The notes beneath the pieces were generated by a model. The model worked only from the letters and a program-made list of their open reading frames with translations, was not told where the DNA came from and ran no database searches. Below, in pieces: positions 16,104-30,065 of a stretch of 64,000 nucleotides of DNA (within the stretch, counting starts at the first letter, position 1; each line of letters starts with the position of its first letter). The DNA is taken from positions 76,422 to 140,421 of the forward strand of contig DAHXOO010000002.1 of the NCBI GenBank assembly GCA_027364845.1, given 5' to 3'. Made by a program: the position numbers and the translations under genes. Origin of the DNA: Pseudomonadota bacterium. GTDB taxonomy: Bacteria > Pseudomonadota > Gammaproteobacteria > Acidiferrobacterales > UBA6901.

Positions 16104-16419
16104 AATTTTTATTGTTCCGTATATGGTTAGTTATAGCAAAGGTCGGCGTGGCGGGTGTTGGCACATTGCTGGCATCGGATTGACTGCCCGGGGTGGGCGC
16201 CGCCAGGGGGCGTTTTTTGGAGTATGAAGCGGAGCGATTCGCATCTGGCCGCGTGCAACATCGGCGGGTTACGGTGACTTGGCTGATACACTGAGAGGAG
16301 GAATCGCCGGCGGAGCGGGTGCCGCACGCTTCATTCCGAACCTGAACAACGCGACTTGTCGCGCATCCTGGTCGTGGCCCGCATACGAAGCGCCCGGTGC
16401 CGGCTTCGTGGCCAGCATG

Positions 16420-16446
16420 GAAAAAGCGGTGCCTGATTGCTCAGGC
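16420..16446 (-). terminator. Candidate rho-independent terminator after the tlpA-like gene
   Basis: The minus strand reads GCCTGA-GCAA-TCAGGC (6-bp stem), then ACCGCTTTTTCC (T5). Confidence 0.4.
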
Positions 16447-16586
16447 AATTGACCCCGCCAAGGAAGATTTGTTGCACAGACAGGGCGAGACCCGGGTCTG
16501 CGGCGACGGCGAGCGCGTCCCAAGTCTCTCAGACTCATCGGCACGGAGCACGGGCCAGTTTGGCCACGCCCGCATACCGCGACAAA

Positions 16587-17141
16587 TCAGCCCGGCGCTG
16601 GCGCCCTATGCCGGTGTGAAACCGTCGGGGCCGAGGGAGCAGGACGCGGCAGCAGCTGCATCAGGCGCGCCTGCAGCTTCGGGGCCGACCAGTCCCTGCC
16701 GCCGACCAGGACATCGACCAAGCGTCCGTGCGGGTCGATTACGTAACTTGTTGGCAGCCCGACCATCCCCCACTTCCTGCTGACCGCGGCATTCTGGTCA
16801 AGCAGGATCGGGTATGTGATCTTCATTTGTGCGGCGAAGGGCTGCACTATGCTCCATCCCTCGCCGACTTCCACCCCGAGAATCACGAACCCTCTGTCCT
16901 TAAACTTTTCGTAGGTGCGCTCCATAGAAGGAATCTCAATGAGGCATGGCGGGCACCATGTCGCCCAAAAATTCACGATGACGAGCTTGCCGCGATAATT
17001 TGTAAGATGCCGCACTTTGCCATTGAGATCCTTTAGGGAGAAATTCGGAGCGACGCGTGCTGCCGTAGATACGGCCGGCACGGCATGGCCGGCGGGCACA
17101 GCGGCGAGCCACACGATTGCGGCGGCAGCGAAGCGCGTCAT
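16587..17141 (-). CDS. Periplasmic thiol:disulfide oxidoreductase, TlpA/ResA/redoxin family
   Basis: WATWCPPC thioredoxin motif. Signal peptide MTRFAAAAIVWLAAVPAGHA from ATG at 17141; the track start at 17198 is likely over-extended. Confidence 0.85.
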   Translation of the reverse strand: MTRFAAAAIVWLAAVPAGHAVPAVSTAARVAPNFSLKDLNGKVRHLTNYRGKLVIVNFWATWCPPCLIEIPSMERTYEKFKDRGFVILGVEVGEGWSIVQPFAAQMKITYPILLDQNAAVSRKWGMVGLPTSYVIDPHGRLVDVLVGGRDWSAPKLQARLMQLLPRPAPSAPTVSHRHRAPAPG

Positions 17142-17146
17142 CACGG

Positions 17147-17767
17147 TTACTTCTCCATCGCTGAACGAGTGGCAGAGCATAACACGTTGCGCACCCATGC
17201 CTGTTCTGGTACGCCGTTTTCGGTCCAGCGGACCTGCAGATCGAAGCGCTGGCCGGGACCCAGGTTGGCGGTAACCATTCCCTGCAGCCAGTCGCCGCCA
17301 CCAAGCCGCTCCACGGTCGGAAGCATGGCGTAGCGGAAAGCGATCTGCGCCGAGGGTGCGACCCGCTCCTTACCCCATTGTCGGTGCCAGTCTGCTTCGA
17401 GGCGAAGCTGGTTCTTGTGGCCGTCGGCAACCACCCGCCAATCACCGAGATTGATCCGGATCGTCCTGGCTGCGGACAGGTTCTTCACAACGACCGCCAT
17501 TACGCAGGCATCAGCGATCTGCCGTGAAACGCTGGGTGTGAAGCCGCGCCCCTGGAAAAACGCCTCGGTCAGATCGATAGGGCGCTGGACAAGCTCGACG
17601 GCCAGTCCGTCCTGCCGGGCTACTGCCCAGTGCGGCAATGCGGTTTGGGACAGAGGACTGGAGGCGTTCGCCGTTGCCGCATAGCCCGCAACAAAAGCGA
17701 CTACCAAGAGCGTCAACACCATCCTGCAGCGGCACGAACCGCGTATGTCGCGAAAGATGCCGACCAT
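17147..17767 (-). CDS. Hypothetical secreted protein (~206 aa), unknown family
   Basis: The C-terminal 206 codons of track ORF 17147-18253 start at ATG 17767 and carry a signal-like MVLTLLVVAFVAGYAATANA. The upstream 160 codons are Arg/Pro-rich junk. I recognise no family motif. Confidence 0.6.
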   Translation of the reverse strand: MVGIFRDIRGSCRCRMVLTLLVVAFVAGYAATANASSPLSQTALPHWAVARQDGLAVELVQRPIDLTEAFFQGRGFTPSVSRQIADACVMAVVVKNLSAARTIRINLGDWRVVADGHKNQLRLEADWHRQWGKERVAPSAQIAFRYAMLPTVERLGGGDWLQGMVTANLGPGQRFDLQVRWTENGVPEQAWVRNVLCSATRSAMEK

Positions 17768-18204
17768 CGAATCTGCCCCCGTCAATCTTAGCCCGCGCTG
17801 GTAGCGGGAGTTTGCGGCATCACTGCCGACATAAAGAAACTCGCGCTGGGCGCAGCGCTGGCTGCCATTGGGTGGCGCGAACCTTCCACTTCGATTGGGT
17901 CTTGCCCGCCAAGGATGGGGCCCGCCGTTCTGCCAATACTCGATATGTGCCCGGTTGCAGGCCGCCACTGTCCGGGACTCGGCCACGGGCAAGGATCGGG
18001 ACGACTTTGGACGCAATAGCGGGTGGCATGTATTGATCTGGTTCTTCGCCCAAGAATCAGCGCTGCGCTGGGTCCTGGTTCGATTCAAAATCGTGGATCC
18101 CCGGTGACGACAGCGGCGTTTGCAAAAAAACGCACGTTGTCCGAACAAGCGCCGGTTAGGTCGACGGCAACTCATAGTGATTCCGTCACCACGAAGAGCG
18201 CTGG

Positions 18205-18879
18205 TCATTTTCTGTAACTCGTAGTCTCGACTGGCAGCCCCGCCTCGCGCCACTCCGGAAACCCATCCTGCAGCCGCCGCGCCTGAAACCCCGCCTGGCG
18301 CAGGCGCTCCACCGCCTCATAGGCAAGCACACAGTGCGGTCCGCGACAATACGCGACGATTTCCTGGTCGTGCGGCAAGTCGTTGAGTCGTTGCTCGAGA
18401 TCTTTCACCGACACGTTGATAGCCCCCGGAACATGGCCCGACGCGTACTCCTCTTGCGGACGAACGTCCATCACCGTCACCAGTCCGCGGCGCGCGCGGT
18501 CAAGCAGCTCGGCGCGCGGGATCGGCTCCAGCTCATCCTTGACGGTCAGGTAGGTGCGAACCAGGCGCTCGACTTCGGCGAGGTGCGTCTCGGCAAGCTT
18601 ACGCATGCTCGCGAGCAGTCGAACAACTTCATCGTCCACGATGCTGTAGGAGACGTACTGCCCCTCCTTGCGTGCTTTGACGAGGCCGCTCTGGCGCATA
18701 ACCTGAAGGTGCTGTGAGGTATTGGCCACGGAGATGCCCGCGAGCTTCGCCAGTACCTCGACGGTGCGCTCCCCTTGGGCGAGATACTCGAGCAGTTCTA
18801 GTCGGTAGCCGTGGCAAACGGCCCTGCCAATGCGAGCAATCTCGCGGTAGAGCTGCTGCTTGAGTGAGGGACTTGACAT
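18205..18879 (-). CDS. ArsR/SmtB-family transcriptional regulator fused to a C-terminal rhodanese domain
   Basis: Winged-helix block RLELLEYLAQGERTVEVLAKLAGISVANTSQHLQVMRQSGLV. Rhodanese block VMDVRPQEEYASGHVPGAINV...AYCRGPHCVLA contains the active-site Cys. The first ATG at 18879 has AGGA 7 nt upstream; the track uses TTG at 18906. Confidence 0.9.
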   Translation of the reverse strand: MSSPSLKQQLYREIARIGRAVCHGYRLELLEYLAQGERTVEVLAKLAGISVANTSQHLQVMRQSGLVKARKEGQYVSYSIVDDEVVRLLASMRKLAETHLAEVERLVRTYLTVKDELEPIPRAELLDRARRGLVTVMDVRPQEEYASGHVPGAINVSVKDLEQRLNDLPHDQEIVAYCRGPHCVLAYEAVERLRQAGFQARRLQDGFPEWREAGLPVETTSYRK

Positions 18880-18896
18880 GATGATCCTGCAGAAAG

Positions 18897-18924
18897 TAGT
18901 ATTCAATTGAATGATTGAATACTA
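18897..18924. promoter_or_regulatory. Candidate operator: perfect 10-bp inverted repeat TAGTATTCAA-N8-TTGAATACTA with a nested 12-bp palindrome ATTCAATTGAAT
   Basis: Read directly: 18897-18906 is the reverse complement of 18915-18924, and 18901-18912 is self-complementary. It lies in the AT-rich divergent region between the ArsR-rhodanese gene (18879) and the plus-strand operon (18984). Confidence 0.6.
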
Positions 18925-18983
18925 GCAGATCGGAAGCAAATCTTCCAAATCCGGATGTTTTGTTCGTCGCCCACGGGGGTATT

Positions 18984-19835
18984 ATGCTTGAAATCGTTCT
19001 GCAGCACGCCATGGTCCTGCGGTTAGGTATGTTTTTCGGGATCCTGGTCGCCATGATACTGTTGGAGCTTGCCGCGCCACGCCGCCCGCTTTCTGTGTCC
19101 CGGCTTCGCCGCTGGGCAAGCAACCTGGGTATCGTGTTTCTCAACAGCATCCTGCTGCGCCTGCTTTTACCGCTGGCCGCCACCGGATTTGCGCTGCTAG
19201 CGGCGGACCGGGGATGGGGGCTTTTCAACCTGTTCCTCGTTCCTTCCCGGGTTCTGGTCATCGCCTCGATCATCCTCCTTGATTTGGCGATCTACCTGCA
19301 GCACGTACTGTTCCATGCGGTCCCGGCATTGTGGCGGCTGCACCGCATGCACCATGCCGACCTCGATGTCGACGTCACTACCGGAGCCCGCTTTCATCCG
19401 ATCGAGATCCTGCTTTCGATGTTGATCAAATTTGCGGTCATTGCACTCCTCGGCGCCCCGGCGGCAGCCGTGATGATTTTTGAAGTGCTGCTCAACGCCA
19501 CCGCCATGTTCAATCACGGCAATGTGCGGCTGCCGCTTGGCCTTGACCGTGTGCTGCGACTGTTCGTCGTCACGCCGGACATGCACCGGGTGCATCACTC
19601 CATCGAGGACCACGAGACCAACAGCAATTTCGGCTTCAACCTGCCCTGGTGGGACCACCTGTTCGGCACCTACAAGGCCCAGCCCAACGCCGGGCACGAG
19701 GCTATGACCCTCGGCATCCGCGACTACCGCGCGCCGAAGCTCACCACCGACCTGCCCGGCATGCTGATCCTGCCGTTCCTCGGACGCGTTACCGGCTACG
19801 CCATCAACCGCCGCGAATGGAGCCGCTCTTCGTGA
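18984..19835 (+). CDS. Fatty acid hydroxylase / sterol desaturase superfamily membrane protein
   Basis: Histidine boxes HAVPALWRLHRMHH and PDMHRVHHS, with several TM segments. ATG at 18984 is preferred over the track TTG at 18915, which sits inside the palindrome. Confidence 0.8.
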   Translation: MLEIVLQHAMVLRLGMFFGILVAMILLELAAPRRPLSVSRLRRWASNLGIVFLNSILLRLLLPLAATGFALLAADRGWGLFNLFLVPSRVLVIASIILLDLAIYLQHVLFHAVPALWRLHRMHHADLDVDVTTGARFHPIEILLSMLIKFAVIALLGAPAAAVMIFEVLLNATAMFNHGNVRLPLGLDRVLRLFVVTPDMHRVHHSIEDHETNSNFGFNLPWWDHLFGTYKAQPNAGHEAMTLGIRDYRAPKLTTDLPGMLILPFLGRVTGYAINRREWSRSS

Positions 19836-20845
19836 AACGGAAATCGGTTTCCCGCATTGCTTTGTTCGCCGCTCTCGCGGCGGCGATTGCCCTTGCTTAT
19901 GCCTACCGCGGTCTGCTGAATGTCGCGGCGCTTGAGGGTTGGGTCAACAATGCGGGCGCGCTCGGTCCCCTGCTGTACATGGCGGTGTACGCCATCGCCA
20001 CCGTGCTGTTCCTGCCCGGCTCGGTGATCACGCTCGCCGGCGGCGCACTGTTCGGTCCGGTCTGGGGCACGTTCTACAGCCTGACCGGCGCCACCGTGGG
20101 TGCCACGATTGCGTTCCTGATCGCGCGCTATCTCGCCTCTGATTGGGTGCATCACAAGGCGGGCGGCTGGACCAAGCAACTGATCGAAGGCGTGGAGCAG
20201 GAGGGCTGGCGCTTTATCGCGTTCGTGCGGCTGGTGCCGCTGTTCCCGTTCAACCTGCTCAACTACGCGCTCGGGCTCACGCGCATCGGGCTGCTGTCCT
20301 ACGTCGTCGGCTCCTACATATTCATGCTGCCGGGCGCGCTTGCCTACACCTATCTCGGCTACGTGGGGCGCGAGGCGGTTGCCGGCGGCGAGGGTCTGAT
20401 CCAAAAGGGACTGCTGGCGCTGGCGCTGCTCAGCGTGGTGGCCTTTCTGCCGAGCCTCATCAAGCGCCTGCGGGGCGCGCCCACGGCAGCCGCAGGGAAA
20501 CTATCCAGCGCGGACCTCAAGCAACGGATCGAGCGGCACGACGATATCGCCGTGCTCGATGTCCGCCCCGGCAAGGATTACACCGGCCCCCTCGGGCACA
20601 TCGCTGGCTCGCGCAACATCCCCATCGATGAGCTGCCACGGCGGTTGGCCGAACTCGACGTGTATCGTGACCGTCCGCTCGCCGTGATCTGCCGCACCAA
20701 CCGCATGTCCGGCAAAGCGGTCGAGCTGCTGTACGCCGAGGGCTTCACCCAGACGCTGCTGGTCAGCGATGGCATGGTCGGGTGGAAGAAGCATGGGTTT
20801 GACACCCACGAAAACGGTGTTGGGCAGGAACAGAAAGCAGATTAA
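19817..20845 (+). CDS. TVP38/TMEM64 (DedA/SNARE-associated superfamily) membrane protein fused to a C-terminal rhodanese domain
   Basis: VLFLPGSVITLAGGALFGPVWGTFYSLTGATVGATIAFLIARYL is the TVP38 core. The C-terminus VLDVRPGKDYTGPLGHIAGSRNIP...VICRTNRMSG is a rhodanese with a catalytic Cys. ATG at 19817 (alt GTG 19832, a GTGA overlap). The track start at 19649 is an Arg/Pro-rich extension overlapping the previous gene. Confidence 0.85.
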   Translation: MEPLFVKRKSVSRIALFAALAAAIALAYAYRGLLNVAALEGWVNNAGALGPLLYMAVYAIATVLFLPGSVITLAGGALFGPVWGTFYSLTGATVGATIAFLIARYLASDWVHHKAGGWTKQLIEGVEQEGWRFIAFVRLVPLFPFNLLNYALGLTRIGLLSYVVGSYIFMLPGALAYTYLGYVGREAVAGGEGLIQKGLLALALLSVVAFLPSLIKRLRGAPTAAAGKLSSADLKQRIERHDDIAVLDVRPGKDYTGPLGHIAGSRNIPIDELPRRLAELDVYRDRPLAVICRTNRMSGKAVELLYAEGFTQTLLVSDGMVGWKKHGFDTHENGVGQEQKAD

Positions 20846-20883
20846 ACGAAGGGCAGCGTGCACTTTGACGCAATGACGACGCC

Positions 20884-21672
20884 ATGTGCGAATTGTTCGG
20901 ATTAAGTAGTGATCTGGCACTGCAGCCGCGGGAACTCCTGTGCCGCTTCGGCACGCACGGCGGCGGCGTCGCCGACAACCCGGATGGCTGGGGCCTCGCC
21001 TGGATCGAGGGCACATCGGTCCATATTGAAAAGGAACCACAGGCGGCAGCTCGCAGTGCCCGCTTCCACGAATTGTGTGTACACACCCGCGCGCCGCTCA
21101 TCCTGGGACACGTGCGCAAAGCCAACCCACCCACGGCACGCGTAGCTGCCAACACGCATCCGTTCCGTCACGTCTGCTGCGGGCGCGAGTGGGTGTTTGC
21201 ACACAACGGGATCATCCCCGACGATGCGATGCCCGCGGCGGCGGACACGGCACCGTTGTGCGTGCCTGCCGGCGACACCGATTCCGAACATGCTTTCTGC
21301 GTGGTACTGGAGCGCATCGCCACGGCACTTTCCCCGCCGCAGGCTGCGCACGAAGGGCTGTGGCTCGATGCGCTAGCCGGAGTCGCCGAGATGCTCGCTT
21401 CACGCGGGCGCTTCAATTTTCTGATGTCCGATGGCGTGCATCTCATCGCCTACGGCCATGACCGGCTGTGCAGGCTGGTCAATGCGGCCGCCGCCTGCTG
21501 CGAAGGCACGGCGTCGGCGATTGCAGTGATCGCCAGCGAACCGCTTACCGATGCAAGGGCGTGGTCAGCCTTCGAGCCGGGCGAGCTCCGGGTCTATCGG
21601 GCCGGGAAGCAGGTTGCGCGCTTCGTCACCCGGCCACGCGGCTTCGGATCGAAAGCTACGGCACCGGTATGA
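20884..21672 (+). CDS. Class II (Ntn) glutamine amidotransferase, YafJ/EgtC-like
   Basis: Starts MCELFG, with the nucleophile Cys at position 2. DGWGLAW and HVRKAN...NTHPF blocks are present. Confidence 0.8.
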   Translation: MCELFGLSSDLALQPRELLCRFGTHGGGVADNPDGWGLAWIEGTSVHIEKEPQAAARSARFHELCVHTRAPLILGHVRKANPPTARVAANTHPFRHVCCGREWVFAHNGIIPDDAMPAAADTAPLCVPAGDTDSEHAFCVVLERIATALSPPQAAHEGLWLDALAGVAEMLASRGRFNFLMSDGVHLIAYGHDRLCRLVNAAAACCEGTASAIAVIASEPLTDARAWSAFEPGELRVYRAGKQVARFVTRPRGFGSKATAPV

Positions 21673-21764
21673 TTATTCGCCCGCAGCCTAATGAACAATA
21701 ACGCCAGGCGCCGCAAACTGTGCGCGATACTGGACGATAACGAGAAATCTTCGGAGACATCGGA

Positions 21765-23102
21765 ATGAGGGTCAGGACCGCGGTGATTTGGACGCTGGCG
21801 GCGACTGCAGCGATATTTCTCGGTTGGCGCATGCTGCGGCCGCTGGAGATTTTTTCGATTTCCAAGCGCTTTGAGAATCCGCTGCCGGCGACCCCGGTTC
21901 CATCTCTAGGCACGCTCAGCGCACGCCACTGTGGCACCTGCCACCGAGCCAATTATCGCGAATGGAGCACGACCATACACAGGCGTGCCTGGACCGATTC
22001 CTATTTTCAGGCCGACTGGCGCGCCGAGGGACGCAAACAGATCTGTCTCGAATGTCATACTCCTCTAACCACACAGCAGAGGTACCGGGTGTTGGGCTAT
22101 CATGGAGGCAACCGGTGGGATCCAGCGCTGGCGCCCAACCCAGCCTTCAAACAGACGCTGCGCCAACAAGGGGTAAACTGTGCCGCCTGCCACGTCCGAC
22201 ACGGCGTGATCTACGGACCGTTTGCGAATCTCAACGCGCCGCATCCGGTCGCACGCTGGAATAACGACAATGAAGCCTGCGTCCGTTGCCACGTCGTCAA
22301 CAACCGTCACCGCGATGTGTTTTACCGAATGCCGCCCTGCGGTACCGTGACGGAGATTACGCGCACGCGTCGCCGTTTCCAGCTGGAGGGCCTGCCGATT
22401 CATGCCTTGCTGTCCGCAACGTCGCCGGACCCTTTGGCAGGTGTGCCCCGCTACGTTGGGGAACGGCAAGCGCCGCCTGCACGCCGCGCAGTTGATGATG
22501 ATGGCTACGGCGTGGCATTGCCGGCCCGCGCCCTTGCGGCGCTCAAATGCGTGGAGTGCCATATGCCGTCGGTCAACCGCCCGCTGGTGCCCGGTGGCAA
22601 GGTGCGGCCAGGCCGACGGCACCTGTGGCGCGGTGGTCATGATCCGCGCATGGTCAGGGACGCCCTGAATGTCAGTTTTGCCGAGGCACTGACCTCCACT
22701 TCCGGTCGCGAACGCTACATCCTGACCCTCACCGACACCGGTGCCGAACACTACATTCCCACTGGAGTTCCTGACCGGCATCTGACTGTGAAGCTGCGCG
22801 TGCTCGATGCCGGCGGACATACCCTGAAATCACGGACTTTCACCCTGGAACGCCGCGTACTTTGGCGGCCGTTCATCGTTGAGCTGCACGATACGCGGCT
22901 GCGCCCCCTTGAGCCGCGCATCTACGGCATTGGACTCTCCACCCGCACTCACCCCCGCCCAACAGCAGTGGAGGCAGTGGTACGCTACTGGCTGATGGGC
23001 AAGTCGCACCGCGCGCATCTCCACTACCCGGCACCCATTTCCTACGTGCTGTTCCGCAGTCGTATTCCGCTTGTGGGCGGGAACGCGTCTGGTGCCTCAT
23101 GA
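21765..23102 (+). CDS. Membrane-anchored pentaheme c-type cytochrome
   Basis: Five CxxCH motifs: CGTCH, CLECH, CAACH, CVRCH, CVECH. N-terminal TM/signal anchor AVIWTLAATAAIFLGW. Confidence 0.85.
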   Translation: MRVRTAVIWTLAATAAIFLGWRMLRPLEIFSISKRFENPLPATPVPSLGTLSARHCGTCHRANYREWSTTIHRRAWTDSYFQADWRAEGRKQICLECHTPLTTQQRYRVLGYHGGNRWDPALAPNPAFKQTLRQQGVNCAACHVRHGVIYGPFANLNAPHPVARWNNDNEACVRCHVVNNRHRDVFYRMPPCGTVTEITRTRRRFQLEGLPIHALLSATSPDPLAGVPRYVGERQAPPARRAVDDDGYGVALPARALAALKCVECHMPSVNRPLVPGGKVRPGRRHLWRGGHDPRMVRDALNVSFAEALTSTSGRERYILTLTDTGAEHYIPTGVPDRHLTVKLRVLDAGGHTLKSRTFTLERRVLWRPFIVELHDTRLRPLEPRIYGIGLSTRTHPRPTAVEAVVRYWLMGKSHRAHLHYPAPISYVLFRSRIPLVGGNASGAS

Positions 23103-24514
23103 CACGGCGTGATCTGGCGGTGATTGGCGGCGGCGCTGGGGGGCTGGTCGTGGCAAGCGTGGCGGCGCAGCTCGGTTTGAAAGTGACTCTGGTAGAAAAG
23201 TCCGGCCGCCTCGGCGGCGACTGTTTGCACCACGGCTGCGTACCGAGCAAGACGCTCATCCACGCCGCCAAGGTAGCCGCGCTGATGCGCCGCGCTGCCC
23301 AGTTCGGCCTGCCGGAGCAGCCACTGCAGGTGGATCTAGCCGCTGTCAACGCACGCGTGCAGGAGGTGATTGCCCGCATCCAGGTGCATGACGATCCGGA
23401 GCGCTTCCGCGGCTACGGATGCGAAGTCCTGCTGGGCGAACCTGCGGTATTCGTTTCGCCACAGGAACTGCGCGTCGGCGAGAAATCGATGCATGCGCGA
23501 CGCTTCGTCATTGCCACCGGTTCCCGTCCAGCGCTGCCGCCCGTGCCGGGTCTCGAGTCGGCTGGCTACCTCACCAATCTGGACGTGTTTAGCCTGAGCG
23601 TACTGCCACGGCGGCTAGTGGTGCTAGGGGGCGGACCGATCGGCGTTGAATTGGCGCAGGCGTTCGGCCGCCTGGGGAGCCGCGTCACGCTTATCGAACG
23701 GCTGCCTCAGCTGCTGCCGCTTGAAGACAGCGAACTGTCCGGGATGCTGCGCCAAAGCCTGGAGGCAGAACACATTTCCGTTCACACAGGAACAAACGTC
23801 GAGCGCGTGGAGCAGCGCGACGGCACTAAGATCATATACTGTACCGGCGTACCGGCGCTGGAGGCGGATGCGATTCTTGTCGCTGCCGGCCGGCGCCCGA
23901 ACCTCGATGAGCTCGGGCTGGACGCTGCCGGCGTGCGTTACGGCGCGCGCGGCATCGAAGTTGACAGGCGGTTGCGTAGCTCGCAACGCCATATATATGC
24001 CTGCGGTGATGTCTGCGGACCGCATGCCTTTACGCACATGGCTGAATACCAGGCCGGTATTATCATCGCCAATGCCATATTCCGGCTCCCGCGAAAGGCG
24101 GACTACCGCGTGGTACCGCGGGTGACGTTCAGCGATCCGGAGCTTGCGCAGGTGGGGCTTACCGAAGGCGAGGCACGCAGCCGAGGTATAGATGTGAAGG
24201 TCCTGAGCTTTCCCTTCTCCCAGATCGATCGCGCCCTTGCCGAGCATGAAGAGCAGGGGCTTCTGAAGCTCGTCACGCACCGCGGTAAGCTGCTTGGCGC
24301 TTCGCTTCTCGGGCCGCATGCAGGGGAACTCGTTCACGAGCTGGTGCTGGCGATGAGAGCCGGCGTGTCGGTGGCAACGCTCTCCGCCACGATTCACGCC
24401 TATCCCACACTTGCCCAGATCCACCGCCGCGCCGCCAACGCGGCTTTCGCACCGACGCTTTTCAGCCCCGCGACGCGCCGCCTCGTACGCTGGCTGCAGC
24501 GTTTGGTACCATAA
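23099..24514 (+). CDS. FAD-dependent pyridine nucleotide-disulfide oxidoreductase (class I; dihydrolipoamide dehydrogenase / mercuric-reductase-like, no MerA C-terminal Cys pair)
   Basis: VIGGGAGG, the redox-active disulfide GGDCLHHGCVPSK, a second Rossmann VVLGGGPIGVE, and the dimerisation-domain HAYPT. ATGA overlap with the cytochrome gene. Confidence 0.9.
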   Translation: MTRRDLAVIGGGAGGLVVASVAAQLGLKVTLVEKSGRLGGDCLHHGCVPSKTLIHAAKVAALMRRAAQFGLPEQPLQVDLAAVNARVQEVIARIQVHDDPERFRGYGCEVLLGEPAVFVSPQELRVGEKSMHARRFVIATGSRPALPPVPGLESAGYLTNLDVFSLSVLPRRLVVLGGGPIGVELAQAFGRLGSRVTLIERLPQLLPLEDSELSGMLRQSLEAEHISVHTGTNVERVEQRDGTKIIYCTGVPALEADAILVAAGRRPNLDELGLDAAGVRYGARGIEVDRRLRSSQRHIYACGDVCGPHAFTHMAEYQAGIIIANAIFRLPRKADYRVVPRVTFSDPELAQVGLTEGEARSRGIDVKVLSFPFSQIDRALAEHEEQGLLKLVTHRGKLLGASLLGPHAGELVHELVLAMRAGVSVATLSATIHAYPTLAQIHRRAANAAFAPTLFSPATRRLVRWLQRLVP

Positions 24515-24552
24515 ATATAGAGTGCAATTTCGCGACCGGTCTTTATCGATCG

Positions 24553-25515
24553 ATGCACGCCACGCTGCCTTCGCTAAAAAATACCGATTTTCCAACGCTT
24601 GCGCGCGGCTCCCTGGAGACCCTGCAGGTCAACCTCGGGTATCGCTGCAATCAATCCTGCCTGCATTGCCATGTAAATGCCGGGCCGTCGCGCAAGGAAC
24701 AAATGTCGCGCGAAACGATCGCGGACGTGCTGGCTTTCCTGGACGCGACGACCGTACGCAACCTGGACCTGACGGGCGGCGCGCCGGAGCTCAACACGCA
24801 TTTCCGGGCGCTGGTCACTGAGGCACGCCGGCGGGGCGTTCACGTCATTGACCGCTGCAATCTTACCGTTCTGTTTGAACCGGGACAGGAGGGGCTGGCT
24901 GAATTCCTGGCACAACAGTGCGTCGAGATCACAGCTTCCCTGCCGTGTTATCTGCAGACCAACGTAGATGCCCAGCGTGGAACCGGAGTCTTTCCGAAGA
25001 GCATCGCCGCACTTCGGCGATTGAACGATCTCGGGTACGGCCACAATGCCGACCTCGTGCTGAATCTCGTTTACAACCCCGGCGGGGCCACACTGCCTCC
25101 GCCGCAGGGTGCGCTCGAGGACACATACCGCAGTGAACTCGGCAAGCACTATGGCATCGTTTTCAACCATCTTTACACTATTGCCAATATGCCGATCCAG
25201 CGCTTCGGAAGCACGCTGATCTCGCGTGGGGAATTCCATGCCTATATGGACGCGCTTCGTAGCGCGCACCAGCCGGAGAATCTGGCTTCAGTCATGTGCC
25301 GCTCGCTTGTGAGCGTCGACTGGCAGGGCTGGGTCTACGATTGCGACTTCAATCAGATGCTTGGACTTCCGATGCGCCTGGGAGACCATCCGCGGGTGCG
25401 CCTGCGCGAGCTCGTCCACGTCGACCTCGCCGGCAATCCGATCGCAGTTGCGGACCATTGCTATGGCTGCACGGCGGGCCAGGGTTCTGGCTGCGGCGGG
25501 GCACTGGGTAGCTGA
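24553..25515 (+). CDS. Radical SAM / Cys-rich-domain protein, ArsS-like (arsenosugar-biosynthesis radical SAM family)
   Basis: The N-terminal LQVNLGYRCNQSCLHCH radical-SAM cluster motif is the variant typical of this family. The C-terminal Cys-rich tail is CYGCTAGQGSGCGGA. Confidence 0.75.
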   Translation: MHATLPSLKNTDFPTLARGSLETLQVNLGYRCNQSCLHCHVNAGPSRKEQMSRETIADVLAFLDATTVRNLDLTGGAPELNTHFRALVTEARRRGVHVIDRCNLTVLFEPGQEGLAEFLAQQCVEITASLPCYLQTNVDAQRGTGVFPKSIAALRRLNDLGYGHNADLVLNLVYNPGGATLPPPQGALEDTYRSELGKHYGIVFNHLYTIANMPIQRFGSTLISRGEFHAYMDALRSAHQPENLASVMCRSLVSVDWQGWVYDCDFNQMLGLPMRLGDHPRVRLRELVHVDLAGNPIAVADHCYGCTAGQGSGCGGALGS

Positions 25516-25581
25516 CACGTCCTGTCGCAGAACAGCCAGAGCGCGGACACCACAAAGTTCCGATCCCAGCGAAAAGGTGAA

Positions 25582-25607
25582 CCCGGGCCGGGAACGTCCT
25601 TTTTTTT
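25582..25607 (+). terminator. Possible weak terminator between the radical SAM gene and the C_GCAxxG_C_C gene
   Basis: T8 run at 25600-25607 preceded by a GC-rich segment (CCCGGGCCGGG) that can form only a short stem. Confidence 0.3.
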
Positions 25608-25763
25608 GGACTTCGATGGCGACCCGGTCCCGCAATGCGTGGAGCTCTAGTCGGCTGGCAACACAGTAAGGCGTTCAGTTTTGCACTGCACAGCGGAAAT
25701 GGATATGGCCGTCAACCTACCCTATACTTATATCAGAGATTTCTAATATACGCGGAGGATGGC

Positions 25764-26246
25764 GTGACGAACTCAGACAGACAGATCCTGGCGGAACAGG
25801 CCTATTGCAAGGCTTTGCGCTATGAACTCGATTACGGCTGTTGCCCACAGTGCGTGCTAGCAACGGTCCAAGAAACGATAGGCATCGTAGACGATGCCAC
25901 CATCAAGGCAAGCCATGGGCTGTCCGGGGGCGGCGCTCTGACGGGCAAGGGCACGTGCGGCGCCTTGACCGGCGGGCTCATGGCCTTGAGCGCCAAGCGC
26001 GGCCGCGACCGCGACAAGCTCGACCAGGGCCGCGGCATGAACAATTTCCAGAAAAGCCGCGAACTGGTCTACCGTTTTCGGGCCGAATTCGGTGGCGTCA
26101 CTTGCGAGGAACTGCAGCAGCGCTTCGCGGGCCGCACCTATGACATGTGGAACCCGGCCGAGTACACGGCCTTCAGCGAGGCACGCGGTGACCAGTGCGC
26201 TCGCGCCACGGCGACCGTAACCCGCTGGGTCGTCGAAATGCTTTGA
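25764..26246 (+). CDS. C_GCAxxG_C_C family protein (putative redox-active)
   Basis: The ordered Cys pattern CPQC ... GTCGALTGG ... VTCEE ... DQCA fits C-GCAxxG-C-C. GTG at 25764 is preceded by GGAGGA; the track start at 25635 adds a non-conserved extension. Confidence 0.75.
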   Translation: MTNSDRQILAEQAYCKALRYELDYGCCPQCVLATVQETIGIVDDATIKASHGLSGGGALTGKGTCGALTGGLMALSAKRGRDRDKLDQGRGMNNFQKSRELVYRFRAEFGGVTCEELQQRFAGRTYDMWNPAEYTAFSEARGDQCARATATVTRWVVEML

Positions 26247-27012
26247 GGCCCGCTCCGGCGCAGGCGTGCCGCTGCCAGGTCTCGAGCGCGTGGCAGGTCA
26301 GGGCGCTGACCCGGGTCACCCCGATGGCGTGCGATCGCAAGGTGCGTTTTCATCTTTTCATCGACCCTGTGAATCTGGCAACGCCACCCGCGCAGCTCTG
26401 GCCAATGCGACCGTTCGCCGGCTTCAGTATCCAGTCACCCGGCTCGTTCACGGATTCTCTTGGCTACTCGGACGGTGCGATCTGCGACAGCACTGTGTCC
26501 CGCCAGACTCTCTTCGCTGGTCAGACCGGCTCAAGCATCGACTCCGGATCACTGGCCTGCGCAGATAGCATGGCAAGCCGTTGCCGCCATGAGATGGCGC
26601 CGGGCATTCACTACTGAAGAAACATCCTGGGCTACGCCGCACACGCTCTGTTGCGGCGCACGCCGGGATTGGCGGCAAGATTCTTTTCATCGGACGCGAA
26701 CTGGAGACCGGCTTTACACATACCATTTTTTTACGCCGAAGCGCTGGCCTAGTCCTGTTGCGTGAGGCTGCGTCCTGCACTTCTGGCACGGGGCATAATG
26801 GAGACCCGCTCCAGCACATCCGCCGTGGTATTTGGAGAAGTTCGAGCCGGGCATGAACAGTGCCCGCCACCGAATATCATCACATTGATCGATTTCGGAA
26901 AGAATAACGATAGCGACCACATGCGGCGGACACAGGCGCGTGTGGCGAAGCGCCATGCGTTTGGATTACATTAGCGGCTCTTCCGACCGGCCGGATCGAG
27001 GGTTCATCGCCC

Positions 27013-27816
27013 ATGACAGTACGCAGATCGCGAATTCGTATCTTCGCACTCACCCTTGGACTACTGGCCGCAGTCCAGATTCCGGTGCACGCCGCTCCAA
27101 TCGGCAGACATAGCACGAATAGCGGTAGCGTGGTCGATGTCGCAGTCGCGGCTGATTTCATTCACACCCTGCAGGATCTGGGCACGGCCTTTGCCAGCGC
27201 CGGCGGCGGGCATATTGTGATCAGCGCTGGATCGACTGGCAAGCTGTACGCGCAGATCCATGCCGGCGCCCCCTATGACGTATTGCTTGCGGCCGATGTC
27301 TCCACTCCGCGCCTGCTGGTCAAGCAGGGATTGGGCGTGGCCGCCAGCCGCTTCACTTACGCGCGCGGCCGAATTGCGCTCTGGAGCCGTTCACCGCGGC
27401 GCGTAGACAACAAGGGGCTGGTGTTGAGGAACGGGAAATTCCGCCACCTTGCCATCGCCAACCCCAAAACTGCACCGTACGGGGCGGCGGCACGTGAGGT
27501 GCTGCAACATCTGGGGCTATGGCAAACCTTGCGCACCCGCATCGTTCGCGGAGACGACATCGGGCAGACCTTCCAGTTCGCGGCCAGCGGCAACGCCGGG
27601 CTCGCATTCGTGGCACTGGCGCAGCTCAAGGACCCAGCGTTCCCGGCCAGCGGATCCTACTGGATCGTGCCGCAAAAGCTGTATGCCCCCATTGATCAGC
27701 AGGCGGTGCTTCTCGAGCGCGCCCGTAATAACGCCGCGGCCATTGCGTTCGTAAAGTTTCTGCACAGCCACCGGGCACGAACGATCATTCGCCGCTATGG
27801 CTACAACGTCGACTGA
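27013..27816 (+). CDS. modA: Molybdate ABC transporter substrate-binding protein ModA
   Basis: Signal peptide, then SAGSTGKLYAQIHAGAPYDVLLAAD and IANPKTAPYG blocks. Followed by modB and modC. Confidence 0.9.
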   Translation: MTVRRSRIRIFALTLGLLAAVQIPVHAAPIGRHSTNSGSVVDVAVAADFIHTLQDLGTAFASAGGGHIVISAGSTGKLYAQIHAGAPYDVLLAADVSTPRLLVKQGLGVAASRFTYARGRIALWSRSPRRVDNKGLVLRNGKFRHLAIANPKTAPYGAAAREVLQHLGLWQTLRTRIVRGDDIGQTFQFAASGNAGLAFVALAQLKDPAFPASGSYWIVPQKLYAPIDQQAVLLERARNNAAAIAFVKFLHSHRARTIIRRYGYNVD

Positions 27817-27872
27817 GCATACGCAGCAAGCCATCCGGGCCGCCGACCCCGATTCCGAGGACGGGATACAGT

Positions 27873-28556
27873 ATGAATGCATTGGCGATCGATTTTACCC
27901 CGGTCTGGCTCACGCTGCGTCTTGCCCTGACCTCGACGGCGATTCTGCTCATCATTGGAACACCTGTCGCGTGGTGGCTTGCACGCACAAGCTCGTTCTG
28001 CAAGCTGCCGGTCGAATCCATTGTCGCGCTGCCGCTGGTGCTTCCTCCCACCGTGCTCGGCTTCTATTTGTTGATCGCGCTTGCGCCCACCGGGCCACTG
28101 GGTAGAGTCTGGCACGCGATCAGCGGCGGTTCGCTGGCGTTCAGTTTTTCTGGTCTGGTAATCGGGTCGGTTCTGTACTCGCTGCCGTTTGTGGTGCAGC
28201 CATTGCAGAATGCCTTCGAGGCGATCGGCGAGCGCCCGCTCAAGGTGGCTGCAATGCTGGGTGCCGGGCCCGTGGACCGGTTTTTTACCGTCGCCCTGCC
28301 GCTCGCGCGGCGCGGACTGGTCACGGCGATTACCCTCGGCTTCGCCCATACCGTGGGCGAGTTTGGGGTGGTGCTCATGATCGGCGGCAACATTCCGGGG
28401 AAAACTCAGGTGCTGTCTATCTCGATCTATGACCATGTGGAAGCGCTCGAATACGGACGCGCTCACGTGCTGTCGGCAGGATTGCTGGCCTTTTCGTTCC
28501 TCGTGCTGTTCGTTGTCCACCTCACCAACCGGCGCCTGCAGGCGCGCGGCTTATGA
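27873..28556 (+). CDS. modB: Molybdate ABC transporter permease ModB
   Basis: 227-aa permease with five or six TM segments. LPLVLPPTVLGFYLL and the EAA-like loop AAMLGAGPVDRFFTVALP. Confidence 0.9.
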   Translation: MNALAIDFTPVWLTLRLALTSTAILLIIGTPVAWWLARTSSFCKLPVESIVALPLVLPPTVLGFYLLIALAPTGPLGRVWHAISGGSLAFSFSGLVIGSVLYSLPFVVQPLQNAFEAIGERPLKVAAMLGAGPVDRFFTVALPLARRGLVTAITLGFAHTVGEFGVVLMIGGNIPGKTQVLSISIYDHVEALEYGRAHVLSAGLLAFSFLVLFVVHLTNRRLQARGL

Positions 28557-29629
28557 GCGATATCGACGCGCATCTTGTTCTGCGGCGCGGCGAGTTTGTG
28601 CTCGATGCTACGTTCCAGACACCAGCGCGCGGCATCACCGCGCTGTTCGGGCCTTCGGGGTGCGGCAAGTCCACGCTGCTGCATTGTATCGCTGGTCTGG
28701 AACCCGCGGTGCGCGGCACGCTGCGGGTCAATGACGAACTCTGGCAGGATAGCGAATTGCACGTCTTTGTGCCCGCGCACCGACGCAGGGTGGGATACGT
28801 ATTTCAGGACGCCGGGATGCTCGCCCATCTGAGCGTGCGCGGCAACCTTGAATACGGAATGAGGCGCGCGCGGCGCGCGCGTTCCGGGCCAGCGTTTGCC
28901 CAGACCGTAGAGTGGGCCGGCATTGGTCCGCTGCTTGGACGCCGCGTCCAGGGACTGTCCGGAGGAGAACGCAGTCGCGTAGCGATGGCCTGTGCGCTGC
29001 TGACAGACCCGGTGATGCTGCTTATGGATGAGCCGCTGGCCGCGCTGGATGCCCGGTCGCGAGCCGAGATGCTGCCGTATCTCGAACGCCTGCACAGCGA
29101 GTTGTCGATCCCCGTGCTTTATGTGAGTCATGCCATCGACGAGGTGGCACGGCTCGCCGACCATCTGATAAGCCTCGAACCAGGGCGCGTCGTAGCCTGC
29201 GGTGCCTTGCGCGAAATGCTCACGCGCCTAGATCTGCCGTTTGCCCGCAGCGACGAGGCAGCGGCTATCCTCGATGCGGTAGTGACCGGATACGATGAGC
29301 AATTCCAGCTGGCGCTGCTCGCATTTCCCGGCGGCCGCCTGGCGATACCGCAGCGGCGGCTGCCCGCAGGAACTGCAGTGCGCGTGCGCATTCTGGCGCG
29401 TGACGTGAGCCTGAGTCTGGCACATCATCACGATACCAGCATTCTCAATATCTTCCCGGCGCGCGTGCTGGATATAACGGAGGATCGGCCGGCACAGGCC
29501 GTGGTCAGACTGGATGCCGCCGGCGCCGTTTTCCTCGCCCGGGTCACGCGGCGATCGGTGCACTCGCTCGGCCTTAAGCCAGACGCCGAAATCTACGCCC
29601 AGATCAAGAGTGTCGCGCTCTTGCGCTGA
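28553..29629 (+). CDS. modC: Molybdate ABC transporter ATP-binding protein ModC (with C-terminal TOBE/Mop domains)
   Basis: Walker A GPSGCGKST, signature LSGGERSRVAMA, Walker B LLMDEPLAALD. The C-terminal ~130 aa is TOBE-like. ATGA overlap with modB. Confidence 0.9.
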   Translation: MSDIDAHLVLRRGEFVLDATFQTPARGITALFGPSGCGKSTLLHCIAGLEPAVRGTLRVNDELWQDSELHVFVPAHRRRVGYVFQDAGMLAHLSVRGNLEYGMRRARRARSGPAFAQTVEWAGIGPLLGRRVQGLSGGERSRVAMACALLTDPVMLLMDEPLAALDARSRAEMLPYLERLHSELSIPVLYVSHAIDEVARLADHLISLEPGRVVACGALREMLTRLDLPFARSDEAAAILDAVVTGYDEQFQLALLAFPGGRLAIPQRRLPAGTAVRVRILARDVSLSLAHHHDTSILNIFPARVLDITEDRPAQAVVRLDAAGAVFLARVTRRSVHSLGLKPDAEIYAQIKSVALLR

Positions 29630-30065
29630 CCTGTGCCCCCCTGGGTCGCTCGAAGAAATCCCGCAACGCCCGAGTACGCAGGACCAGGCTCAGTGCCACA
29701 AACAGGCAGCCGGCAAACAGCCCCATGACAACGCTCGGCGAACGCAGCGAACGCATTGCATCCATACGCTCGAGCCGCGCCGACCAGAATGCGGTCAGCG
29801 CCGGAAGCACGCCGATGATCGCTGCCAGCGCCAGATTCCACCAGAAAGCCATGCTGCGGCTCCACCAGCTGCGGCGCAGCAACCCGAAAACACCGACCGC
29901 CGTGTACAGCGCCGCAAAGCCGAGCAGTCCGGCATACACTAGCCGTGATCCCGCCACTGGCAAGTTCCAGGTGCGCGCGGAATAGACCTCAAGTGCCGCA
30001 TGCGCCAAGGCAATGTCGGTCCAAAGATACAGCACGACGTTGATCCAGATGACCAGTCGTTTCAC
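29604..30065 (-). CDS. Hypothetical integral membrane protein (about 4 TM)
   Basis: 153 aa, hydrophobic, GTG start. I recognise no family motif. Its 3' end overlaps modC convergently by 26 nt. Confidence 0.55.
   Translation of the reverse strand: MKRLVIWINVVLYLWTDIALAHAALEVYSARTWNLPVAGSRLVYAGLLGFAALYTAVGVFGLLRRSWWSRSMAFWWNLALAAIIGVLPALTAFWSARLERMDAMRSLRSPSVVMGLFAGCLFVALSLVLRTRALRDFFERPRGAQVSARARHS

Follow-up and report, generated by a model that had tools for sequence, protein, structure and literature searches.

An ArsS-type gene neighborhood joined to a candidate ArsR-rhodanese regulon in a bacterium of the Acidiferrobacterales

We analyzed a tightly packed gene cluster at positions 18205 to 26246 of a 64,000-nucleotide stretch of DNA (hereafter the window; positions 76,422 to 140,421 of the forward strand of contig DAHXOO010000002.1, assembly GCA_027364845.1) from a gammaproteobacterium of the order Acidiferrobacterales. 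By its gene content, the cluster is an "arsenosugar-type" neighborhood of the radical-SAM protein ArsS, joined to a previously undescribed regulon that is headed by an ArsR-rhodanese regulator. Comparison with related loci strongly supports the view that the controlled, ancient core consists of a membrane di-iron oxygenase and a TVP38/DedA-rhodanese protein, and supports as strongly that the operon of this lineage gained a YafJ/EgtC-type amidohydrolase, a c552-like cytochrome, an NAD(P)H disulfide reductase and ArsS. As to function, we tentatively favor, with a little less than even confidence, a thiol and sulfane-sulfur module that would handle soft metalloids, probably methylated or thiolated arsenicals, and end in adenosylation by ArsS. 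As far as the window shows, the cluster is not a complete arsenosugar pathway, since neither ArsM nor the TIGR04282 and TIGR04283 transferases are encoded there.

The gene set was taken from the open reading frames (ORFs) of the window, and their domains were scored against Pfam and NCBIfam profiles. The initial annotation of this DNA had listed eight genes, and the ORF coordinates and both profile scans agree with it. The regulator gene (18205..18879, minus strand; HTH_5, Rhodanese and NF033788), which encodes an ArsR/SmtB-type helix-turn-helix (HTH) fused to a rhodanese domain, faces seven genes on the plus strand. The first of these encodes a membrane di-iron oxygenase of the fatty-acid (FA) hydroxylase/sterol desaturase family (18984..19835; PF04116, 94.6 bits), and its stop codon at 19835 runs into the start (ATG at 19817 or GTG at 19832) of a gene extending to 20845, which encodes a TVP38/VTT (DedA-superfamily) membrane protein with a C-terminal rhodanese (VTT_dom and Rhodanese). 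There follow the genes for a stand-alone class-II (Ntn) amidotransferase that is YafJ/EgtC-like and has a Cys2 nucleophile (20884..21672; GATase_4, PF13230, 168.8 bits), a periplasmic pentahaem cytochrome c with five CXXCH motifs and a C-terminal beta-sandwich domain (21765..23102), and a cytoplasmic, PRK06370-like FAD/NAD(P)H disulfide reductase (23099..24514; Pyr_redox_2 and Pyr_redox_dim; C42-x4-C47). The stop codon of the cytochrome gene and the start codon of the reductase gene share the ATGA at 23099-23102; both overlapping junctions noted earlier are therefore present. The last two genes encode the ArsS radical-SAM/DUF3641 protein (24553..25515) and a C_GCAxxG_C_C putative redox protein (25764..26246; PF09719, 77.2 bits vs. 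a gathering score of 27), the latter falling marginally under the NCBIfam TIGR01909 cutoff (47.0 vs. 47.4).

The 104-bp divergent intergenic region between the regulator and FA-hydroxylase genes carries a candidate operator, the palindrome TATTCAATTGAATGATTGAATA (TATTCAA-N8-TTGAATA) at 18900..18921, which occurs once in the window against a chance expectation of 0.02 matches. Its core, ATTCAA-N8-TTGAAT, was found in exactly one copy in each of 42 fetched loci; nearly all of these were loci with the regulator, FA-hydroxylase and TVP38-rhodanese genes, in which the core lies, across lineages, between the regulator and FA-hydroxylase genes. By comparison, the core was absent from loci that have ArsS but lack these three genes. 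A sigma-70-like promoter for the plus-strand operon, recognized by consensus match only, lies at 18873..18902 on the plus strand (TTGACA, 18 nt, TAGTAT; 10 of 12 consensus positions), and its -10 hexamer abuts and overlaps the operator. It is very likely, as the initial annotation had proposed, that the regulator controls the plus-strand operon that it faces; the conserved palindrome is placed over the -10 element. One exact copy of the core, in locus L122 (13438-13457), is situated ~3.4 kb downstream of the FA-hydroxylase gene and not in the divergent region, and may mark a second target promoter.

The regulator gene is divergent to the FA-hydroxylase gene in 34 of the 55 loci with at least 1 kb of upstream sequence. 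The regulator itself scores above the cutoff of the generic ArsR/SmtB subfamily NF033788 (68 vs. 55 bits). Two cysteines of its rhodanese loop, C178 and C183 in the motif CRGPHC, are kept in 98% of 46 homologues, and no other cysteine is conserved; C22, the sole cysteine of the HTH half, is found in only 7%. This pattern fits the earlier proposal that the signal is sensed through the rhodanese cysteine. We did not assign the regulator to the BigR/SqrR-type persulfide repressors (NF040642, 40 bits vs. a cutoff of 155; no conserved Cys pair within the ArsR fold), nor to the As(III)-sensing ArsR proteins, as its ArsR domain is without conserved cysteines. It resembles BigR and SqrR in being an ArsR-fold repressor encoded divergently from its target, with a palindromic operator, a conserved Cys pair as the likely sensor and sulfur-transfer genes in the regulon, but differs from them in that the Cys pair resides in the appended rhodanese rather than in the ArsR fold, and in the content of its regulon. 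Very plausibly, the protein works as BigR/SqrR or As(III)-ArsR sensors do, but through its rhodanese dithiol. Two ArsR-rhodanese paralogues are encoded in locus L084 (1-375 and 3723-4382); the distal one, which is not the cluster-adjacent copy and lies beside SHOCT, Thioredoxin_2 and DsbD genes, is 80% identical to the regulator of the window.

We refer to the arrangement of an ArsR-rhodanese gene on the minus strand facing FA-hydroxylase and TVP38-rhodanese genes on the plus strand as the trio. In a survey of 80 metagenome loci anchored on the FA-hydroxylase, the trio was the tightest unit, and the TVP38-rhodanese gene followed the FA-hydroxylase gene in 28 of the 37 loci with at least 3 kb downstream. 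Directly behind the trio, loci L073, L097, L116 and L157 carry ArsS and the two transferases without the reductase. As the ArsS cassette takes up this position in several lineages, the cluster is best seen as a mosaic of shuffled modules: it is well supported that it consists of the trio plus an optional GATase, cytochrome, reductase and ArsS cassette. The single seven-gene unit of the initial annotation does not stand, given that the modules are optional and that the trio mostly occurs without ArsS in the metagenome survey. Other neighbors of the trio include DsrE-like proteins (among them a TVP38-rhodanese-DsrE fusion in L175), a NifS-like cysteine desulfurase, a small methyltransferase, a type-III-SQR-like flavoprotein, a GltD-like iron-sulfur flavoprotein, multihaem cytochromes, DsbD and Redoxin, the genes for the last two adjoining the trio in L084 and L175. 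Exporters of the MMPL/HAE3 type, with outer-membrane partners, also recur near the trio. The trio was not described in the literature that we found, in which the papers on ArsR, rhodanese and persulfide cover other regulators, and it may represent a new sulfane-sulfur- or metalloid-responsive regulon.

In L013, L029, L074 and L078, which are labeled Acidiferrobacterales, Chromatiales, Thiohalobacter or plain Gammaproteobacteria and whose proteins are 45-67% identical to those of the window, the minus-strand regulator gene faces genes for the FA-hydroxylase, TVP38-rhodanese, cytochrome, reductase, ArsS, an ArsM-like protein, TIGR04283 and TIGR04282, in that order. Closer relatives (L084-L088) have GATase_4 inserted between TVP38-rhodanese and cytochrome and an ArsM-like gene right after ArsS; the GATase gene occupies the same position in L084, L087, L172-L175 and L113, and was found in these closer relatives and not in 80 loci anchored on ArsS. 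The whole region is kept in three sibling genomes (L172-L174), including the flanking genes and the C_GCAxxG_C_C gene, and close homologues carry Acidiferrobacterales labels. The gene-neighborhood check suggested by the initial annotation thus came out in two parts: the sub-modules are co-conserved in order, and the full set of seven or eight genes is confined to close relatives. As the gene order recurs in distant as well as close relatives, the cluster is, on this comparative evidence, more than a chance neighborhood.

The C_GCAxxG_C_C gene has to be set apart from the rest. It occurs at this position only in L172-L174, was absent from the 80 ArsS-anchored loci, and is separated from ArsS by a 248-bp gap that contains a T8 run and a promoter-like site, so that it is probably its own transcription unit; a terminator scan gave no enrichment over shuffled sequence. 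Its earlier listing as a member of the operon is therefore doubtful. In L172, the gene comes after the ArsM-like gene. The NCBIfam families NF045669 and NF045667 are named after the consecutive locus tags DVU_1555 (a C-GCAxxG-C-C protein) and DVU_1556 (a methyltransferase), and the ArsM-like neighbors of ArsS and the small methyltransferases of the trio loci match the DVU_1556 family weakly. A C_GCAxxG_C_C protein and a methyltransferase may thus form a recurring partnership.

An ArsM-like gene is present in L084, L087, L172 and gammaproteobacterial loci, and among the three siblings in L172 only. The encoded proteins score below the NCBIfam cutoffs (NF040538, 350-360 vs. 500 bits; NF008823, 180-197 vs. 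263 bits) and contain the cysteine motifs CC, YGCG, NCVLNL and WSGC, which we take to be the As(III)-binding cysteines of ArsM. In L172, ArsS is 67% identical to that of the window, against 85-88% for the flanking genes, so that an ArsS-ArsM cassette appears to have been exchanged at the same site. The stretch in question is 15503-18731 in L172 and 24514-25764 in the window; in L172, noncoding gaps of 494 bp and 605 bp border the ArsS and ArsM-like genes. Among genomes without an adjacent ArsM, ArsS evolves with a ratio of nonsynonymous to synonymous substitution rates (dN/dS) of 0.105-0.119, indicating purifying selection; the ratios of all genes tested lie between 0.05 and 0.32, and those of the C_GCAxxG_C_C gene between 0.05 and 0.09.

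The assignment of ArsS is secure, in that the whole protein scores 449.1 bits against the TIGR04167 equivalog cutoff of 300. Its invariant cysteines include those of the CX3CX2C motif (C32, C36 and C39) together with C303, C306 and C314; seven further cysteines beyond that motif are conserved, and the DUF3641 domain (PF12345) matches with 182 bits. In these features, the radical-SAM motif and the Cys-rich DUF3641 domain, the protein is like the ArsS of the ArsS/ArsM arsenosugar pathway (Synechocystis). The only characterized step is the adenosylation by ArsS of dimethylarsenite, DMAs(III), to 5'-deoxy-5'-dimethylarsinoyl-adenosine (PMC13598754).

For comparison, we took 80 genome loci from beta- and gammaproteobacteria in which ArsS shares 64-70% identity with that of the window. 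The most frequent neighbor, in 53 of the 80, was a TVP38-reductase fusion of ~733 aa whose best NCBIfam family, NF004991, is also that of the window reductase; the initial annotation was right in stating that the two occur elsewhere as one protein. A GT2 transferase of TIGR04283 (273 bits vs. a cutoff of 182 in L029) and a DUF2064 protein of TIGR04282 (195-205 bits vs. 134; 205 in L029) were each found in 49 loci, an unannotated protein of ~349 aa with no family match in 34, a secreted DUF547 protein in 23, an ArsM-like methyltransferase in 15, and a TIGR03169 "N-terminal-to-SelD" flavoprotein (418 bits vs. 310) in 14. When only the 44 fully flanked loci (8 kb or more on each side of ArsS) were counted, a reductase homologue was present in 35, a TIGR04283-like protein in 38 and a TIGR04282-like protein in 37, and the regulator of the window type together with the FA-hydroxylase in 4. 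The betaproteobacterial clusters lack an FA-hydroxylase gene. In those clusters, a protein of ~325-349 aa, without NCBIfam match, with a weak, sub-threshold resemblance to Metallophos_2 and without counterpart in the window, is usually encoded directly after ArsS (e.g., L004, 10989-11963; L011, 10959-11906). A rough neighbor-joining distance tree of ArsS, made without support values, placed the trio-, unfused-reductase- and ArsM-linked sequences mostly together and apart from the fusion-linked ones.

It is well supported by these counts that the association of ArsS with the TVP38 and reductase pair is long-standing. The window proteins share with the bifunctional TVP38/TMEM64-FAD oxidoreductases ("mercuric reductase-like") the same two domains, the NF004991 family, a VTT domain that is 32-43% identical, and the link to ArsS. 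Unlike the fusions, the two functions are encoded by separate genes in the window, where the VTT domain is fused to a rhodanese and the cytochrome c is translationally coupled to the reductase. NCBIfam names this ArsS neighborhood "arsenosugar biosynthesis" (TIGR04167, TIGR04282 and TIGR04283), and the earlier statement that the combination matches no known pathway has to be amended to that extent, although our literature searches on TVP38-MerA-radical SAM, DUF3641 and DUF2064 found no description of it. The window further differs from the arsenosugar pathway in having neither ArsM nor the transferases, which the sister loci, but not the window, carry directly after ArsS, and its regulator, oxygenase, TVP38-rhodanese, amidohydrolase, cytochrome and reductase are all foreign to the described pathway.

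The reductase scores 495 bits against the NF004991 cutoff of 620, and in an alignment of homologues C42, C47 and H433 are invariant and a C-terminal Cys pair is absent. It is roughly equidistant from the solved MerA and dihydrolipoyl dehydrogenase (Lpd) structures. Neither identity was retained: for MerA, TIGR02053 gave 380.6 bits vs. a cutoff of 454, and the protein starts at its FAD motif (no NmerA) and has no conserved C-terminal Cys pair; for Lpd, TIGR01350 gave 384.2 bits vs. 408.8, and the context is not that of a 2-oxoacid dehydrogenase operon. Reductases of the Npsr/CoA-persulfide type combine, in one polypeptide, a rhodanese with a flavoprotein disulfide reductase of the single-Cys CoA-disulfide reductase subclass. 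The pairing of a flavoprotein reductase with a rhodanese cysteine that we suggest here would be similar, but the window reductase is a two-Cys, Lpd/MerA-like protein and its rhodanese is borne by the membrane protein.

Across 43 homologues, neither the five CXXCH motifs of the cytochrome nor its lone Cys192 vary. Its structure model is of moderate quality (mean pLDDT 65.5), with a C-terminal beta domain above 80, and has one full-length match in the PDB, 5ZE8 (Foldseek E 7.8e-12; TM 0.51/0.58), the low-potential pentahaem cytochrome c552 of Thermochromatium tepidum. The two have in common five c-type haems, the C-terminal beta domain, the overall fold and hosts of the sulfur-oxidizer type; the window protein differs in its sequence (16% identity only) and in its invariant Cys192. 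This residue sits in a PPCGT motif outside any CXXCH, in a segment where the model is poor, and could either ligate a haem or form a reactive site of the kind seen in sulfur-processing cytochromes. Orphan homologues, with no cluster genes nearby, occur in L176 and L179, so that the cytochrome is not a specific marker of the system.

The histidine motifs of the FA-hydroxylase are invariant in 87 homologues, and four hydrophobic segments are predicted. Homologues with 75-88% identity occur in many lineages. We tried the ornithine-lipid hydroxylase OlsE as an identity and rejected it (NF052566, 83.4 bits vs. a cutoff of 475), the protein matching the general FA_hydroxylase family only. In the TVP38-rhodanese protein, the catalytic Cys287 is invariant among homologues, and the distribution of positive charges suggests that the rhodanese domain probably faces the cytoplasm. 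The amidotransferase is of the YafJ type, with 1te5 as its nearest solved structure; EgtC was rejected (TIGR03442, 60.2 bits vs. 218.65).

Taken together, these proteins suggest the following mechanism. Sulfane sulfur or a trivalent metalloid would modify the dithiol of the regulator and so derepress the operon. The TVP38-rhodanese protein and the reductase would then import a metalloid-sulfur species, most likely a methylated or thiolated arsenical, and hold it reduced, the rhodanese either holding the arsenical or stripping its sulfur and the reductase recycling the cysteine. The amidohydrolase might trim glutathione-type conjugates, and ArsS would finally trap dimethylarsenite as 5'-deoxy-5'-dimethylarsinoyl-adenosine. 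In a chemically coherent version of this scheme, the rhodanese would remove sulfane sulfur from thiolated methylarsenicals, which would also account for the usual lack of an ArsM gene next to ArsS. Candidate roles of the di-iron oxygenase and the cytochrome are modification of lipids or of the envelope and exchange of electrons in the periplasm.

Several observations weigh against this metalloid reading. An ArsM-like gene is adjacent in only 4 of the 44 fully flanked ArsS loci, so that DMAs(III) is a putative substrate of ArsS in these bacteria. In the window, tblastn with three of the ArsM-like neighbors gave no hit anywhere in the 64 kb at E<=1e-3, the TIGR04282 and TIGR04283 transferases likewise gave no hit there, and ars resistance genes were not seen in its annotated parts. 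A search for an ArsM remnant or pseudogene, covering the interval from ArsS to modA and other parts of the window, found none. In the trio survey, loci of at least 6 kb contained ArsS in 6 of 36 cases, and loci with at least 8 kb downstream in 2 of 10; as the trio is usually without ArsS, the primary signal of the regulator may be unrelated to arsenic. The ArsR fold of the regulator also lacks the conserved cysteines of known sensors. Finally, neither rhodanese loop, CRTNRMS in the TVP38-rhodanese protein or CRGPHC in the regulator, has, by direct reading of the sequence, the CX5R pattern of arsenate reductases, there being no Arg at +6; an Acr2/Cdc25-type arsenate reductase was rejected on the same ground.

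The main rival is a module for homeostasis of sulfane sulfur (persulfide, polysulfide or elemental sulfur), or an accessory to sulfur oxidation, which we regard as possible, if on the whole doubtful. The regulator would be a persulfide sensor, sulfur and electrons would travel by way of the rhodaneses, the reductase and the c552-like cytochrome, and ArsS would be a passenger sharing the promoter. The wide occurrence of the trio without ArsS fits such a module, as do the recurrent DsrE, NifS-like desulfurase, type-III-SQR-like flavoprotein, DsbD and TlpA neighbors, the host labels (which include Acidiferrobacterales, Chromatiales, Thiohalobacter and Sedimenticolaceae), and the resemblance of the cytochrome to T. 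tepidum c552, a protein proposed to take part in sulfur metabolism (PMC11976967). However, several separate lineages have ArsS, with or without ArsM and the transferases, directly after the trio or the reductase, and in L172 it was replaced in situ; its repeated placement and this replacement argue for functional coupling. The pairing of TVP38-reductase with ArsS moreover persists in betaproteobacteria that lack the trio, and the annotated parts of the window show no canonical sox, dsr or sqr genes next to the cluster.

A more specific form of the metalloid reading, which we think unlikely, would dispense with ArsM altogether. TVP38, rhodanese and reductase (elsewhere the TVP38-reductase fusion) would form the bacterial system, missing so far, that turns environmental pentavalent methylated or thiolated arsenicals, such as dimethylarsenate and dimethylmonothioarsenate, into dimethylarsenite by abstraction of sulfane sulfur and thiol reduction, and ArsS would trap the product, in an ArsM-independent salvage or detoxification of methylarsenicals in sulfidic habitats; the repressor would read the same chemistry through its own rhodanese domain.

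It is rather improbable that the cluster is dedicated to an organoarsenical (arsenosugar or arsenolipid), with the FA-hydroxylase and TVP38 building or flipping an arsenic lipid and with ArsM and the transferases encoded elsewhere. The FA-hydroxylase family and the DedA superfamily are lipid-related, which speaks for it, together with the equivalog-level score of ArsS, the sister loci that carry ArsM-like, TIGR04283 and TIGR04282 genes in the same operon, and the MMPL/HAE3-type exporters near the trio in L175 and L177. Yet neither the window nor two of the sibling genomes encode ArsM or either transferase, in most loci no ArsS lies near the FA-hydroxylase and TVP38-rhodanese genes, and the betaproteobacterial ArsS clusters do without the FA-hydroxylase. 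The export sets themselves (L175, 3942-8442; L177, 5015-9376; L087, 11772-15746) are made up of an MMPL/HAE3 or MacB-type transporter, a TP_0789/DUF1329-like protein and a porin-like or DUF1302 protein, and their recurrence hints that a hydrophobic substrate or product is involved.

We give similarly little credence to selenium or tellurium handling, by which TVP38 would import selenite, the reductase would reduce selenotrisulfides, the rhodaneses would carry selenium and the ArsS homologue would form a C-Se bond. The link between a DedA protein and selenite drawn in the initial annotation is correct, such a protein having been connected both with the uptake of selenite and with resistance to it (Ledgham et al., 2005, as cited in PMC8679861). 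The TIGR03169 flavoprotein in 14 of the 80 ArsS loci points the same way, and the NCBIfam names of several of these families indicate that selenoprotein variants exist. Such variants, however, indicate a redox-active cysteine rather than a selenium substrate; neither the annotated parts of the window nor the trio loci showed selD, selA or another selenium-specific gene, and the characterized substrate of ArsS contains arsenic (PMC13598754). Last, that these are unrelated genes, adjacent through the shared ancestry of one clade, is very unlikely: although the full seven- or eight-gene synteny and the flanking beta-oxidation and modABC genes are limited to close relatives, and the C_GCAxxG_C_C gene is clade-specific and probably transcribed separately, the sub-modules keep their order with different flanks in lineages at 45-67% protein identity, the gene junctions are short or overlapping, the operator is conserved and all genes tested are under purifying selection.

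Two minus-strand genes downstream of the regulator, which the initial annotation had named as possible members, may be accessory to the cluster. They encode a TlpA/ResA-like periplasmic thiol:disulfide oxidoreductase (16587..17198; AhpC-TSA, Redoxin and ResA-like family matches) and a secreted protein of ~190-210 aa without Pfam or NCBIfam match (17147..17716), the single-sequence structure model of which was unusable (pLDDT 49). The suggestion gains from the finding that the two recur together beside the trio in two distant loci, L073 and L108, and in all three siblings (L172-L174).

The rest of the window contains beta-oxidation genes, modABC, polA and genes for signaling proteins, and its annotated parts showed no ars, sox, dsr or sel genes. 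A single ORF of 2434 aa (8799-16103, minus strand; 2432-2439 aa in the sibling genomes) adjoins thiolase, FadB-like and acyl-CoA synthetase genes. Its domains comprise an N-terminal FAD-oxidoreductase region of uncertain family, middle and C-terminal acyl-CoA dehydrogenase domains and an ETF-alpha FAD-binding domain, and it looks like an unusual all-in-one fusion of acyl-CoA dehydrogenase and electron-transfer functions. Between the C_GCAxxG_C_C gene and modA, ~766 bp (26247-27012) hold no convincing gene and no Rfam match. A molybdenum-cofactor riboswitch was not detected upstream of modABC, and an Rfam scan of positions 16000-30000 returned nothing at E<=0.1.

Homologues of ArsS are very common in beta- and gammaproteobacteria, and the cluster bears both on their product and on the partnership of ArsS with TVP38-reductase proteins. 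It offers a separable, regulated version of that partnership, in which a defined candidate operator makes the regulation testable. If the function that we tentatively favor, metalloid handling by a thiol and sulfane-sulfur module, is true, it would connect the chemistry of arsenic with that of sulfur in sulfur-oxidizing bacteria, and a member of the DedA/TVP38 family would gain a biochemical role.

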